From Candidatus Thorarchaeota archaeon (GTDB taxonomy: Archaea > Asgardarchaeota > Thorarchaeia > Thorarchaeales > Thorarchaeaceae): DNA of 53,917 nucleotides. The translations under genes were made by a program, and so were the position numbers. The notes beneath the pieces are model-generated. The model saw nothing but the letters and a program-made list of their open reading frames with translations. It had not been told where the DNA came from and did not search any database. The stretch is taken from assembly GCA_046758445.1 (NCBI GenBank), contig JBHIAE010000020.1, positions 1 through 53,917 on the forward strand, in the 5' to 3' direction. Shown piece after piece: positions 6,327-29,189 of this stretch. Within the stretch, counting starts at the first letter, position 1, and every line of letters starts with the position of its first letter.

Positions 6327-9080
6327 TCAGTACAGCTGCACTTCAGCCCAGACCGTAGTCCAGTCTGAGTCGAATGTCGGTTCGCCCGAGTTCACGTTGT
6401 TCCAGAACAACAGCCGGAGCTCATAGTTCATCCCGGGGTGGATGGCAATATCCTGGGGACTGTTTTCGTCCATTTGAAGGTAGAACTCAATCACATTGTC
6501 GCCAGTAGCAAACTCGGTAGCGTTCACTTGACCCGAGTCCGCAACCCAAGAACCGTCGAAGGCCACATGTCCGTCAAAGAACTCTTGACCATTGTAGTTC
6601 ACGAACCGTAGGTCAGAGTCTTCAGGTGAGCCAGTTGGTGCCAGCTGGATTCCGAAGGAGTCTTCTCCCAAAGTGTAGTTGTCCATGTGAATTCCATAGT
6701 AGACATGAGATGAGCTGACGCCCGTGTAGACTGTTGCCCTGTAACCGCCACCGAAGACGACTTCGTAGCTGCTCAGAGCCTTCTCACTGTCCGAGAGAAC
6801 ACCGTCCATTTCGACATCGATTAGGTCTCCTATACCAGATATCCAGTCGGCTGAGGTCCGGTTCAGGTACTGATAATACATGGTGTAGTCAATCTCGTAG
6901 ATCTTCACGGTTCCGTAGGTAGAACTGACGTAGGGCCCCTTGAAAGCGCCATGAAGATCAACGGGCATGTGAGCAAGCCACTCTTCGTCTTGGAGGTACA
7001 CGCGGTCGAGTTGAAGTCTGTCAACCGTGAGGCCCATCTGTTGAGCGTCTTCCTCACTCAGTGGTTCTCCGTAGACCATGAGCTTGTAGATTGTGGAGTC
7101 ATAGAACGCATCAAGCGTGTACTCTTCCTCGACAACGTCCGGTGTGTCTGGATTGTCACCTAGGTACCAGGCATCGTCAATCAACTGGCTTCCGAACCTA
7201 TCCTCAGCAATCCGGACCATCCAGGGCCATTTGCCGTCGTCACCGCCCAGTGCAGTCCGATGACCATAGAACACTAGCACGTGCGTGGCATCCCAAAGCT
7301 TGAACGTCTTTAGCGATTCCGTCAGATTCAGTGCCACCATTGCGTAGCCCATCAGGGCGATTTGTGTTCCATTCCACGTAGCATTATCCACTATCGTGAA
7401 CGCTCCTCCGGCGGAGTTTATCCAGTAGCCATAGTCCCACCAACTGGCAATGACTGCAGTATCGGGTAAGACATCACGGATGTAGGTCATAGATGTCTGC
7501 CAGTCAGTGATGATTTGTCCTGAAGAGAGCGTGCCCGCAGCAAACTCCGGACTACCTGCGAAGTCTGTGACATACTGTGTACCCAGTATCACGTTCACGG
7601 AGAGTAGAAGCCCTAAGAATGCAAAGGCTGCGATTGCGTGTTCTGACGTCAGAGAGGAGCTCATCCGGAAGCGCCGCCTCTCAAACACCGACTTCTGGGT
7701 GACTACTTTGCCGAATGGAGATAGTATGCCATTCACTGCAACAGCTGACAGCACTGCAGCACCTGGAGCCAGAATCAGGCTAAGGCGAATCATACTGCCT
7801 GCGAAGTAGACGGTCGTCAGTCCGTAAAGGAACATGAGATAGTCTTCATCTCGTCCGCGCCTAAACAGGAAGTACATGCCCAAAGGGAAGACAAACATGA
7901 GAAGGTTGAGGGTGTGATAAAAGCTACCCCAAGGAGTTGGGAGATGCTCCGCGACTGAGGCAAAGACACGTTGATCAAGACGGTAGAACGGATTGATTAC
8001 TGTGAGAAACTTGCCACCAATGAGCACTATGGGATTGGAGGTGTAAGGGCGGATTGAGAGGTCTAGAGTGTTCGTGTATGCAAGGTAGGCTGCCACTCCA
8101 GCTACTGGTGTGACAAGACTCAGAAGGATTGGTTTCATATGAGGAGCAAGTGCAGTGACTGTAGCCTTCCGGTAGCTCTCAATCCTCTGCCAAATCTCAT
8201 ATCCTGCAAGCAATGCACCGATGCCTATCGGCGCCAGGATGGATAGCGAAGTCAGATTGCCAAATCCGTTTCGTGGAACTAGACCTCCGATGAACATCCC
8301 AAGTGCTATGGTAATGAGATACGAGTTAAGCAATCGTCTACTGTAACGACCCGAAACTAGCATTAGAAAGGCAAAGAGTGCGAATAGATTGACAAGGAAC
8401 TCTGCAGCACCCCATGATGCTTGGAGATACCCCAATACGAGGCCGGCTCCAACGCCGGAAAGAACTGATCCGCGTTTGAGACTTCTGATGAACAAGTACG
8501 TGGAGAGCACAATTGCAAAGACGCCTACACACTCGTTGTCATAGAAGCCCACTATTGTTCTCTGTATGAAGGCAGGAATAAACGCCAAGAATAGTGCGCT
8601 CAGAAGGCCCACCGTGTTGTTCGATAGCTCTCGCCCGAGGAGGAACACTGCAATAGCGGTCAGAGCGCCCATGAAAGCGGGCATGATTAGAGACACATAC
8701 AGAATGTCAGCACCGATACCCAATCCGTTCAGGATGAAGTAGAAGAAAGCGCTCGTAAAGGGTACTCCGATGAAGCTGCTTGTGGTCATGTCGCGTCCCC
8801 ATGGGACCCATGTTGTTTCGTCAAACCATGTGAAGAATGCCCCATACCCATTGTCGACAACATACTCTGTCACTTTCAGTTGGAACCATGGGTCAAACGC
8901 CCGTACAACAGGCTGTGAATTGAGGAGAGGTAACAGACGCAACACAAATGCTGCAAAGAATATGATGACAAGTGCAAGGACGAGAATCACGGAGCCGCGC
9001 GATATCTTTGCCTTTGGCCTGCGGAAGACCTGTTTCAGGAATCTTCCAGCAGATCGTTTGAACCTATCATATTTAGACAT
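6327..9080 (-). CDS. aglB: Oligosaccharyltransferase catalytic subunit STT3/AglB (eukaryote-like) with extra C-terminal domain
   Basis: FDPWF, GFYDNE, SVAEH, WWDYG, DNATWN and DDGKWPWMVRIA motifs; many TM helices. Confidence 0.96.
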   Translation of the reverse strand: MSKYDRFKRSAGRFLKQVFRRPKAKISRGSVILVLALVIIFFAAFVLRLLPLLNSQPVVRAFDPWFQLKVTEYVVDNGYGAFFTWFDETTWVPWGRDMTTSSFIGVPFTSAFFYFILNGLGIGADILYVSLIMPAFMGALTAIAVFLLGRELSNNTVGLLSALFLAFIPAFIQRTIVGFYDNECVGVFAIVLSTYLFIRSLKRGSVLSGVGAGLVLGYLQASWGAAEFLVNLFALFAFLMLVSGRYSRRLLNSYLITIALGMFIGGLVPRNGFGNLTSLSILAPIGIGALLAGYEIWQRIESYRKATVTALAPHMKPILLSLVTPVAGVAAYLAYTNTLDLSIRPYTSNPIVLIGGKFLTVINPFYRLDQRVFASVAEHLPTPWGSFYHTLNLLMFVFPLGMYFLFRRGRDEDYLMFLYGLTTVYFAGSMIRLSLILAPGAAVLSAVAVNGILSPFGKVVTQKSVFERRRFRMSSSLTSEHAIAAFAFLGLLLSVNVILGTQYVTDFAGSPEFAAGTLSSGQIITDWQTSMTYIRDVLPDTAVIASWWDYGYWINSAGGAFTIVDNATWNGTQIALMGYAMVALNLTESLKTFKLWDATHVLVFYGHRTALGGDDGKWPWMVRIAEDRFGSQLIDDAWYLGDNPDTPDVVEEEYTLDAFYDSTIYKLMVYGEPLSEEDAQQMGLTVDRLQLDRVYLQDEEWLAHMPVDLHGAFKGPYVSSTYGTVKIYEIDYTMYYQYLNRTSADWISGIGDLIDVEMDGVLSDSEKALSSYEVVFGGGYRATVYTGVSSSHVYYGIHMDNYTLGEDSFGIQLAPTGSPEDSDLRFVNYNGQEFFDGHVAFDGSWVADSGQVNATEFATGDNVIEFYLQMDENSPQDIAIHPGMNYELRLLFWNNVNSGEPTFDSDWTTVWAEVQLY

Positions 9081-13013: not shown

Positions 13014-13430
13014 TTATGAGAGCTTTTCTGCCATCATGTAGGTCAGAACAAGAAATGCGGTGCCAGCCAGCAACATGCCTAGTACAATCAGACGGGTTGC
13101 GTAGCCTGGTTGGAAGACGTACTTCGAGGCGTAGTATATGAGGCCAAGCCCGAGGGTTCCAATCATTACCACGACAGAGGCAACTATGCCTTCCATTCCG
13201 AGCTGAAGGTCGAGGCCAGGGGCAATCAGGATTGGAGCGCCACCGGAGGGATTGCCTACGATGGCTGGAGGAGTTCTGATCAGTGTGTAGATGTTACCTC
13301 CAAGGATGAACAGTATCGCAACAAAGACTAGTGCGAATACAACGGTGTCTGGAGGCCTGGACGGCATCCCAAATCGGGGTCTTCTGAGCCTTACTCTTGG
13401 CTTTACTATGAACCGCGGCCACCAGGGCAA
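13014..13430 (-). CDS. OSTC/DC2-like (OST3/OST6-family membrane domain) oligosaccharyltransferase subunit
   Basis: 3 TM helices; GG.IY..I..PP..G and Q..MEG..AS motifs; N-terminal P+basic segment as in DC2; probable TTG start at 13430. Confidence 0.78.
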   Translation of the reverse strand: MPWWPRFIVKPRVRLRRPRFGMPSRPPDTVVFALVFVAILFILGGNIYTLIRTPPAIVGNPSGGAPILIAPGLDLQLGMEGIVASVVVMIGTLGLGLIYYASKYVFQPGYATRLIVLGMLLAGTAFLVLTYMMAEKLS

Positions 13431-13521
13431 TTCTATACACCTGAGCGGTCTGGTTTGGCGGTCTGCTTTTAAGACTATCGTGGGAAAGAGGATTGTACCA
13501 AACAATGAGAGGCGACACAGA

Positions 13522-19786: not shown

Positions 19787-20347
19787 ATGTACTTGCCGCT
19801 AGCGTTGTTCGAGCTCTCCCTATGGATTGGTCTGCCTGCTTGGATTGCGAATGCAACTCCTGTAATCTTCGGAGGAGGTAGACCCATAGATGGAGGCCAA
19901 GTACTGCGTGACGGGCACAGAATTCTCGGTGATGGAAAGACCATCCGGGGTTTCATTGTGGGTGTGGTTCTGGGCACTCTGACTGGCCTTGCCCAGTATT
20001 TATCGGCCCCTTACCTCCTCCCAGTTTTGGACCAGTTTGTGACGGTGTCACCGGACATGGAGTATGTGTTGTTCATGACTGTTCCATCAGCCATTCTCCT
20101 TTCCGTGGGAGCCCTATCTGGCGATCTTCTTGGCTCCTTTCTCAAGAGAAGAGCGAGTATTCAGAGTGGGAGTCCCTCGCCTATGCTTGATCAACTCGGT
20201 TTCATAATCATGGCACTGATCTTCGCATACCCATTTCTGCAGCCTCAGTCAGTCTATGTAGTCATACTGATACTCACTACTCTCGGAATTCACTGGCTTA
20301 GTAATGCTGTTGGCTATCTTCTTGGACTAAAGAAACACCCATGGTGA
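19787..20347 (+). CDS. carS: CDP-archaeol synthase (DUF46)
   Basis: PAWIANATP, PIDGG, ILGDGKT.RG, GDLLGSFLKRR, LDQ, LK..PW. Confidence 0.93.
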   Translation: MYLPLALFELSLWIGLPAWIANATPVIFGGGRPIDGGQVLRDGHRILGDGKTIRGFIVGVVLGTLTGLAQYLSAPYLLPVLDQFVTVSPDMEYVLFMTVPSAILLSVGALSGDLLGSFLKRRASIQSGSPSPMLDQLGFIIMALIFAYPFLQPQSVYVVILILTTLGIHWLSNAVGYLLGLKKHPW

Positions 20348-28109: not shown

Positions 28110-28349
28110 TCAGTCGCCTTTCACTATTTGCCAGCGATACCCGCCTTTTCCGAGCTTCCTAGTTATGAGCCCCTTGTCCACGAGTTGCCTTGCGGCCACA
28201 ATGAATGTGTCGCCACCCGCGCAATCTCGACATATGTCAGCATACTCATCGCTACGAGCAATCTCAAGAACTTCCGATGTCATGAGAGGGTTGACTGCAT
28301 TCTGTAGTATTCTTAATACACATTGGGCGTTTCTTGAGAGGTCTGACAT
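28110..28349 (-). CDS. Small winged-helix-like protein with CxxC, directly upstream of sufS
   Basis: 79 aa from ATG 28349; CRDC; L..KGLI.R...GGYRW wing signature; 5-nt gap to sufS. Confidence 0.65.
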   Translation of the reverse strand: MSDLSRNAQCVLRILQNAVNPLMTSEVLEIARSDEYADICRDCAGGDTFIVAARQLVDKGLITRKLGKGGYRWQIVKGD

Positions 28350-28505
28350 CGTGTTGGGCTGCGGTGCAGGACCCAATAAGAAAGCTTTGATTGATGGTCC
28401 CCTTTGACTCATCATAAGCCTTAAATGAATTCTATCAGGGTGCAGCCCGCTCTTTCTATGGAGACTCCTGCCCAAGTTGTGGGTAATAGGCAGAGGTGAA
28501 TCATT

Positions 28506-28760
28506 GTGGGAAGAAGACGAAGACAGAAAGTACGGCGACGCCCTCAGAAACGGATTCCAGATGTGTATCCATGCCCTGATTGTGGTAACACTGCAATCAA
28601 GATCGAACTCCAGCGTAGCAATAGTCTTGCAAGTGTCAAGTGTGGGTCTTGTGGACTGGAGATGGCAGTTGATGATGTCAACCCCTTAACAGAGCCCGTT
28701 GATATCTACGGTACTTTCATAGACAGGTTCTACGAGGAGCGCAGTGCAGAGGCTGCCTAG
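28506..28760 (+). CDS. elf1: Transcription elongation factor Elf1
   Basis: MGRRRR basic N-terminus, CPDC...CGSC Zn ribbon, LTEPVDIY..FID. Confidence 0.93.
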   Translation: MGRRRRQKVRRRPQKRIPDVYPCPDCGNTAIKIELQRSNSLASVKCGSCGLEMAVDDVNPLTEPVDIYGTFIDRFYEERSAEAA

Positions 28761-28784
28761 TTCGGGCCCCATAATCAGCAATGG

Positions 28785-28790
28785 TTATAA
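28785..28790 (+). promoter_or_regulatory. TATA box for the microprotein/hypothetical/lhr unit
   Basis: TTATAA about 31 nt upstream of ATG 28821. Confidence 0.55.
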
Positions 28791-28820
28791 GTGAGGCAAA
28801 TCCGAGAACGCGGGATTTCT

Positions 28821-28934
28821 ATGCAAATCGAACTCATCCAGTCAATCTTGTCTCTTCTGCTCATCACCATGGGTATCGTGGCCCTGATGCTGATCTTTGC
28901 CTATTCGGTCTGGGGTGAGGAGGAAGATGAGTAA
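28821..28934 (+). CDS. 37-aa single-TM microprotein, OST4-like
   Basis: Manual translation MQIELIQSILSLLLITMGIVALMLIFAYSVWGEEEDE; own TATA box; fills the intergenic gap. Confidence 0.6.
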   Translation: MQIELIQSILSLLLITMGIVALMLIFAYSVWGEEEDE

Positions 28935-28952
28935 TGACACGGGAGGTCCCTC

Positions 28953-29189
28953 TTGATGAGTTCAGACGAGCTTCTTCTTCATGCCTTTGAGAACATTGGA
29001 GGACACTTGGCCAATCTAGACTCAGTTCGTTCCATTGTTCAGGAGTTCAATGGCCATGGCCATTCAAGTGATGAATTGATTCGGTTGCTTGAGGAAAGAA
29101 TGGAAGAAACTGAGGTAACACTGAGGACTGACCTGCGCATATTGATTAATGAGATTCGACACCTGATGAGAGGGAAGTTCTCTGGATGA
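28953..29189 (+). CDS. Small helical hypothetical protein coupled to lhr
   Basis: GGAGG upstream; stop overlaps the lhr start (ATGA). Confidence 0.75.
   Translation: MMSSDELLLHAFENIGGHLANLDSVRSIVQEFNGHGHSSDELIRLLEERMEETEVTLRTDLRILINEIRHLMRGKFSG

Follow-up and report, generated by a model that had tools for sequence, protein, structure and literature searches.

Subcomplex II of the eukaryotic oligosaccharyltransferase (OST) is formed by STT3, Ost4, and a third member, Ost3 or DC2. One-helix proteins also stabilize other membrane enzymes, as KdpF does in KdpFABC and sarcolipin or sarcolamban on P-type ATPases. Among such proteins, the closest known system to the gene described here is the eukaryotic OST4 (Ost4p in yeast; Pfam PF10215; PDB 1RKL and 2LAT; complexes 6EZN, 6C26, 6S7O, and 6S7T), a protein of 36–37 residues. 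According to a review of yeast OST structures, Ost4 lies between TMH1 and TMH13 of Stt3 (PMC7226087). The N-out/C-in topology of yeast Ost4p has been shown experimentally (PMC3687696), and its critical residues, 18 to 24, lie toward the cytoplasmic end of the helix (PMC7226087, PMC3687696). Using distant-homology methods, Eme et al. 2023 (Nature 618:992, PMC10307638) reported that most Asgard classes have homologs of Ost4 and Ost5. Hence, one would expect an Ost4-type subunit in the lineage studied here, and the novelty claimed by the original prediction, which knew of no established prokaryotic OST4, does not hold. The Asgard Ost4 set of that work makes the same claim in kind as is made below, the two being likened by description and not by sequence.

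The window, i.e., the whole stretch of 53,917 nucleotides of a Candidatus Thorarchaeota contig that was analyzed, contains a microprotein gene (Table 1) whose product has a short polar N-terminus, a single hydrophobic stretch of about 23 residues (helix at approximately residues 8–31), and a tail in which Glu or Asp account for five of the six final residues. The original prediction had read the 37-residue ORF, its TATA box, its one transmembrane helix, and its charged tail from the letters, all of them correctly, and had been wrong in calling the gene unannotated: the gene calls of NCBI, JGI, ENA, and Logan already contain this very protein and its relatives, either as "hypothetical protein" or nameless. 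The conservation of the ORF, which had been left to be checked, is strong. It is present in all 24 same-family genomes (six-frame search among 40 relatives), a profile made from the alignment of 22 members matches 84 of 85 same-family (Thorarchaeota) genomes at E < 1e-10, the sole genome without a match being 87% complete, and the median dN/dS is 0.23 over the usable pairs, with mostly synonymous substitutions. Across 25 loci the proteins have 36–41 residues and one hydrophobic stretch each. Gly18, Leu22, Tyr28, and Gly32 are invariant among the 22 aligned members; the near-invariant positions are Leu14, Ala21, Ile25, Val30, and the final Glu.

Table 1. Features of the window, with the genomic context of look-alikes from other Asgard families
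Feature	Coordinates	Strand	Remarks
STT3/AglB catalytic subunit, 917 aa	6327..9080	-	Predicted partner; Pfam STT3, E 1e-51
N-terminus of STT3	8991-9080	-	First 29 residues
OST3/OST6-family membrane protein, DC2-like	13014..13505	-	Without thioredoxin domain; PF04756, E 2.4e-10
CarS (CDP-archaeol synthase)	19787-20347		
121-residue protein	28110-28475	-	No Pfam match; beside elf1 in almost every family locus examined
elf1, Elf1-type zinc-ribbon gene	28506-28760		Stop precedes microprotein; PF05129, E 2e-18
BRE-like stretch and TATA box of the microprotein gene	28776..28791	+	Distance to the ATG constant throughout the 22-25 compared loci, nine genera
TATA box (TTATAAG)	28785-28791		31-36 nt 5' of the ATG
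Conserved block, TATA box to ATG	28798..28820	+	Weak 5-bp inverted repeat; short leader or initially transcribed region
Microprotein gene	28821..28934	+	ATG at 28821, TAA at 28932-28934; 37 codons plus TAA; one transmembrane helix, acidic C-terminal tail
orf78, small four-helix protein, 78 codons	28956..29189	+	Between microprotein and Lhr in f1 and f15
Lhr-type helicase, 947 aa	29186..32029	+	Pfam DEAD, Helicase_C, WH_Lhr, DEAD_assoc
Look-alike, f15			Microprotein-orf78-lhr triad kept; other flanks differ
Look-alike, f32			Directly upstream of lhr
Look-alike, f21 (L060/L064)			2 kb from lhr and metallophosphoesterase
Look-alike, f13 (L052)			Upstream of RPA
Look-alike, f18 (L054-L059)			Between HerA and ribosomal protein S3Ae
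Look-alike, f24			Adjoins Rce1-like protease
Look-alike, f9, Loki-like (L075, L077, L079)			Convergent with Obg-like (YGR210-type) GTPase

On balance, this microprotein is probably an Ost4-like accessory helix on the STT3 of a Thorarchaeal oligosaccharyltransferase of eukaryotic type. The reading, to which we give slightly more credence than to its negation, rests on a predicted docking that is controlled but purely computational, on the topology, on the pattern of conservation, and on the presence of the other members of subcomplex II. In the mechanism that we propose, the helix would be inserted with its N-terminus outside and its C-terminus in the cytoplasm, and the half lying in the cytoplasmic leaflet, from Gly18 to Gly32, would pack in a groove of STT3 made by TM1, TM3, TM12, and TM13. 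The acidic tail would then lie near the very basic cytoplasmic N-terminal segment of STT3 and its TM12–13 loop. By analogy with Ost4, on which the stability of STT3 and the incorporation of Ost3/Ost6 depend, the microprotein may stabilize STT3 and help to hold the Ost3/DC2-like subunit. The original prediction had spoken of a resemblance to OST4, which covers two things: that the protein works like Ost4 is backed by prediction, whereas sequence does not establish that it is a homolog of Ost4.

The STT3 of the window is of the eukaryotic type, since its best PDB matches are the eukaryotic STT3A and STT3B and the yeast Stt3 (E from 1e-87 to 1e-81); its closest named homolog, from Ca. Thorarchaeota SMTZ1-83, has 80% identity, and the homologs of this STT3 assign the genome to the Thorarchaeota (Asgard). 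Judging by hydropathy and by where the catalytic motifs lie, TM1 spans residues 31–52, TM3 159–177, TM12 435–460, and TM13 482–503. The complex was predicted from a 41-row alignment of STT3 and a 22-row alignment of the microprotein. Its ipSAE was 0.79, 0.78, and 0.78 in the three runs, against 0.00 for the best of three controls (two other 37-residue proteins, not necessarily membrane helices, and one unrelated 890-residue partner), a pass that supports binding without showing it and to which memory of the solved eukaryotic OST complexes may contribute. Among solved complexes, 58 of 80 attain this ipSAE mark, as do 2 of 110 mismatched pairs. At least 97% of the contacts are common to the runs, and the pLDDT of the partner is about 80. 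The predicted interface on STT3 comprises residues 27–54, 154–167, 450–461, 486–505, and 517–519, which by the same assignment fall on TM1 and TM13, on the inner half of TM3, and on the inner end of TM12. Docking at the OST4 site of STT3, which the original prediction had put forward as a test, is thus what the model gives: as with Ost4, the microprotein is predicted to be N-out/C-in and flanked by TM1 and TM13 of an STT3 of eukaryotic type.

The orientation comes from the model. The residue pairs of lowest error match STT3 47, 43, 39–40, and 36 with microprotein 14, 17–18, 20–21, and 24–25, i.e., the helix runs antiparallel to TM1, which would place its N-terminus outside and its C-terminus in the cytoplasm; further pairs of lowest error match STT3 156–163 with microprotein 25–18. 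The microprotein sequence has no basic residues to set the topology, and there is no positive-inside signal in it. The part enclosed in the model, residues 17–33, is the conserved half of the family, and the best-defined contacts include those of Leu14, Gly18, Ala21, Leu22, and Ile25. As in Ost4, the conserved half would be the one toward the cytoplasm. Toward the outside, the helix positions predicted to make contacts are no more conserved than the others. The first 29 residues of STT3 are cytoplasmic and include about eleven Lys or Arg, and just before TM1 there is a Pro-Lys/Arg-x-x-Ile/Val motif that recurs in the STT3 of four other Asgard families. The N-terminal tails of STT3 are basic in f1, f13, f15, f21, and f24, and not clearly so in f18. 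This basic N-terminus could face the acidic tail of the microprotein. Since a basic cytoplasmic tail is the general rule among membrane proteins, that of STT3 is not counted as support for the pairing.

The window also codes for a putative third member of the subcomplex. The OST3/6-family protein scores 40.8 bits (cut-off 27), the match lying on the C-terminal membrane part of PF04756, so that the genome shares with the Ost4 systems the presence of such a subunit, and STT3, the OST3/6-family protein, and the microprotein co-occur in the same window. The STT3 gene lies between eIF2-alpha and glycine-cleavage genes. Since the OST genes are dispersed in the genome, the distance of the microprotein gene from STT3 is uninformative. 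If the microprotein binds STT3 at the Ost4 site, then subcomplex II (STT3, Ost4, and Ost3/DC2) would have been already assembled in Asgard archaea, which would fit the published view that the multi-subunit glycosylation machine is older than eukaryotes. The idea of an Asgard Ost4 is already published (Eme et al. 2023); added here are a gene with its coordinates, the signature of selection on it, a controlled docking prediction, and the conserved linkage with orf78 and Lhr (see following). The microprotein would also be a concrete and very small subject for direct biochemical testing.

Sequence comparisons with Ost4 used as probes the yeast protein (identical to the chains of 1RKL, 6EZN, and 6C26, and correctly given in the original prediction) and the human one (identical to 2LAT and 6S7O). 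The eight identities over 14 positions that had been counted against the yeast protein are right in that register, but their excess over chance is only marginal. Pfam Ost4 (PF10215, gathering score 25 bits) has no match by hmmscan in the protein of the window (E ≤ 1) or in any of the 22 family members (E ≤ 10). In a six-frame search of the same genome, this model lists three unrelated membrane segments (best 15.8 bits), the microprotein not being among them, and no genome among 400 of the phylum gives it a score above the cut-off. The weak matches of Pfam Ost4 across the phylum were discarded, as they are membrane helices of larger proteins, such as the C-terminal helix of a 345-residue protein in f9. 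In the reverse direction, the HMM of the family finds no OST4 chain in PDB at E ≤ 10. Without filtering, it gives yeast Ost4 5.3 bits, a score equaled by 28 other six-frame segments of the genome (approximately 6,800 membrane-like windows), and human OST4 −0.1 bits, a level attained by 2,493 segments. A wider HMM that includes the remote Asgard look-alikes raises yeast Ost4 to 9.1 bits, with only three background segments as high, and leaves the human protein at 0.3 bits; scores of about 0 bits, such as the human one, are reached by about 1,500–2,500 random six-frame segments of the genome. With a crude HMM made from the two Ost4 sequences, the microprotein ranks 88th among 61,495 segments, the copy of the window being the highest in its family (7.3 bits) and most members lying near zero. 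The resemblance to Ost4 thus peaks in this genus and not in the consensus of the family, a pattern typical of chance likeness.

The alignment of profiles is borderline. Using hhalign, the family aligns with yeast and human OST4 at a probability of 8% (P = 0.0043), pairing Gly with Gly and Tyr with Tyr, and this score is equaled by 6 of 200 nulls with shuffled columns in the membrane core (empirical p of approximately 0.03). The profile-profile match that had been suggested as a check therefore fails or is borderline, depending on the method: Pfam Ost4 is silent on the family and no OST4 chain of PDB is retrieved, whereas hhalign gives the values above. To set the scale, the match between the yeast and human OST4 themselves is at just E = 0.07–0.08, and with sequences so short, sequence alone can neither prove nor exclude common descent. 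The family and Ost4 belong to one size range (36–41 against 36–37 residues). They also share a spacing, Gly-x9-Tyr, where the invariant Gly18 and Tyr28 of the family are in register with Gly15 and Tyr25 of Ost4 (ten residues apart in both); the spacing is kept in remote Asgard look-alikes. There are also differences. The His that follows the Tyr in eukaryotic Ost4 is absent from the family, which has Ser, Thr, Ala, or Met instead (in the comparison with the known system, Ser, Thr, or Ala). The tail is strongly acidic, whereas that of Ost4 is basic or neutral, a caveat already raised in the original prediction that is kept here and counted against the likeness. Finally, the microprotein has no significant match to the Pfam model or to the solved OST4 chains, and its gene is clustered with those of a four-helix protein and of the Lhr helicase. 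Homology with eukaryotic Ost4 is plausible and unproven from these comparisons: the two may share ancestry or may just occupy the same site. A helix of CarS is matched weakly both by Pfam Ost4 (13.3 bits) and by the HMM of the family (7.8 bits), which indicates that short hydrophobic profiles easily match unrelated helices.

These results leave room for another membrane partner or role, e.g., as a subunit or regulator of another complex, in which case the placement on STT3 and the likeness to Ost4 would be artifacts of a generic helix. This is unlikely, if well short of negligible. It would account for every sequence test against Ost4 being nonsignificant or borderline and for the chance-level matches to other one-helix families, the model being possibly prone to seat any suitable helix where Ost4 is seen in the eukaryotic OST structures. 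Such a generic effect fits less well with a pass that is large (0.78 against 0.00), reproducible, and specific with respect to the controls described above, or with the coincidence between the buried part and the face and half of the helix that are conserved; moreover, the tests run here suggest no alternative partner. The one-helix stabilizers mentioned at the outset offer a further comparison. Like KdpF, sarcolipin, and sarcolamban, the microprotein is, in the model, a tiny helix lodged in the groove of a large polytopic enzyme. Unlike them, it lacks a consistent sequence match, a single member among the 22 matching Sarcolamban weakly (E = 0.002), and the context of a P-type ATPase is not seen.

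The neighborhood of the gene suggests a different alternative. The order cysteine desulfurase, elf1, microprotein, orf78, lhr is found in 25 of 25 loci of the family, with the 121-residue protein before elf1; orf78 starts 18–21 nt past the stop of the microprotein, and its end overlaps the start of Lhr by four bases. In f1, f15, and f32, Lhr is found downstream of the microprotein. The AlphaFold2 model of orf78 is a four-helix bundle (pLDDT 89.5) whose best, and only good, fold match is the uncharacterized PF2048.1 of P. furiosus (PDB 6E4J, TM 0.76/0.82), without a functional clue. Its core, Thr..Thr-Asp..Ile, is invariant and is kept in two distant Asgard families. The orf78 product may be an Lhr-associated factor. 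Public entries of 122 residues (proteins P0136, P0137, and P0142, and positions 186–554 of L082, an ENA contig) show an apparent fusion of the microprotein with orf78. A true fusion would have backed both a physical link and a cytoplasmic C-terminus. These entries, however, can be translated only if TAG is taken as Gln, so the fusion is a gene-calling artifact and the argument was dropped.

One could accordingly propose that the microprotein, as first cistron of a unit formed with orf78 and Lhr, would serve as a membrane anchor or regulator of orf78, of Lhr, or of both, with no role in glycosylation. We regard this as rather improbable. The constancy of the order in all family loci, the close spacing and overlap of the three genes, and the nature of the conserved neighbors, which are orf78 and the Lhr helicase and not glycosylation genes, speak for it, and so does the situation in other families: the order is the same in f15 despite different flanks, the gene of f32 is directly 5′ of Lhr, that of f21 is in the vicinity of Lhr and a metallophosphoesterase, and further look-alikes are beside RPA or HerA. 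Against it, the look-alikes of f13, f18, and f24 are away from Lhr, and in f9 a look-alike with the Gly-x9-Tyr core lies beside an Obg-like GTPase, an ortholog of Lhr not being found in five f9 genomes with this Lhr query at E ≤ 1e-40. Only about six residues would be outside the membrane for a soluble partner, the apparent fusion is the TAG-as-Gln artifact, and genes for small housekeeping membrane subunits often lie among information-processing genes, as secE does next to nusG and secY in the spc cluster. In conclusion, the linkage with orf78 and Lhr is old and real, and it is not universal, the microprotein persisting without it; we read it as that of a housekeeping gene joined to its neighbors by history or by co-transcription.

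The look-alikes behind these comparisons are the weak matches of the profile elsewhere in the phylum. They are small ORFs of the same design, one helix followed by an acidic tail, and they occur in eight or more families of the phylum. The helix has an Ile-Leu-Ala-Tyr-type end, usually with a Gly ten residues earlier, and several of the genes are preceded by a ribosome-binding site of the GGAGG type. In f9, the look-alike has 38–51 codons, the Gly-x9-Tyr core, and a tail of mixed charge (Lys or Arg, then Glu or Asp). Its start varies, being a TTG after an AGGTG site in one genome and upstream ATGs in others. The f18 form is without the Gly, and has an acidic tail of 13 residues with a hydrophobic last residue. 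The forms of f13, f18, and f21, whose neighbors are genome-maintenance genes, are putative homologs of the microprotein.

In a dual function, the microprotein would have a second and lineage-specific role bound up with its operon: the acidic tail might recruit orf78, Lhr, or both to the membrane, possibly at the OST or translocon site. We consider this very improbable; if true, a helicase of genome or RNA maintenance would be linked to the membrane in Asgard archaea.

The ORF is a real gene under purifying selection. Column entropies for codon positions 1, 2, and 3 are 0.79, 0.47, and 1.36, the third position being the most variable, and in one pair of sequences pS is 0.58 versus a pN of 0.046. 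The ATG, the length (36–41 codons), and the position of the stop are constant in 25 loci, while TAA, TAG, and TGA replace each other. The start codon can be fixed, because in one genus the frame opens only two codons 5′ of the ATG. It is scarcely credible that this would be a chance ORF inside a conserved noncoding spacer or leader, as its very small length and the high conservation of the upstream spacer might suggest, given the contrast between third and second positions and between pS and pN, the more than 80 genomes that keep an open frame with its start and stop positions while the stop codons interchange, and the absence of any Rfam match in 28600–29100. A MifM/SecM-type arrest peptide, monitoring membrane insertion, was likewise rejected by inference: by the time the ribosome reaches the acidic codons, the helix would not yet have left its tunnel.

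A 47-residue open frame used as a query retrieved nine close relatives, all without names or Pfam domains. Look-alikes in the ESM Atlas (best score 0.84) fall in clusters without names and gave no lead. A profile search against 1.84 billion representatives gave 23 clusters at E ≤ 0.001, all of the same small family, the eukaryotic Ost4 being absent from them. A scan of the collection with the family alignment gave 20 loci; those that have an organism name are labeled Thorarchaeota or Promethearchaeota (one labeled Hermodarchaeota), the rest being from "uncultured archaeon".

The region upstream of the gene is conserved in its own right. In the spacer between elf1 and the ATG (28776–28820), conservation across nine genera is near that of the coding sequence. 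The BRE-like stretch and the TATA box would act as a promoter. The spacer as a whole could be a regulatory or initiation element. The 23-base block that precedes the ATG, of the type ATCCGAG..ACGC.GGATTCC, is nearly invariant within the genus and recognizable in other genera.
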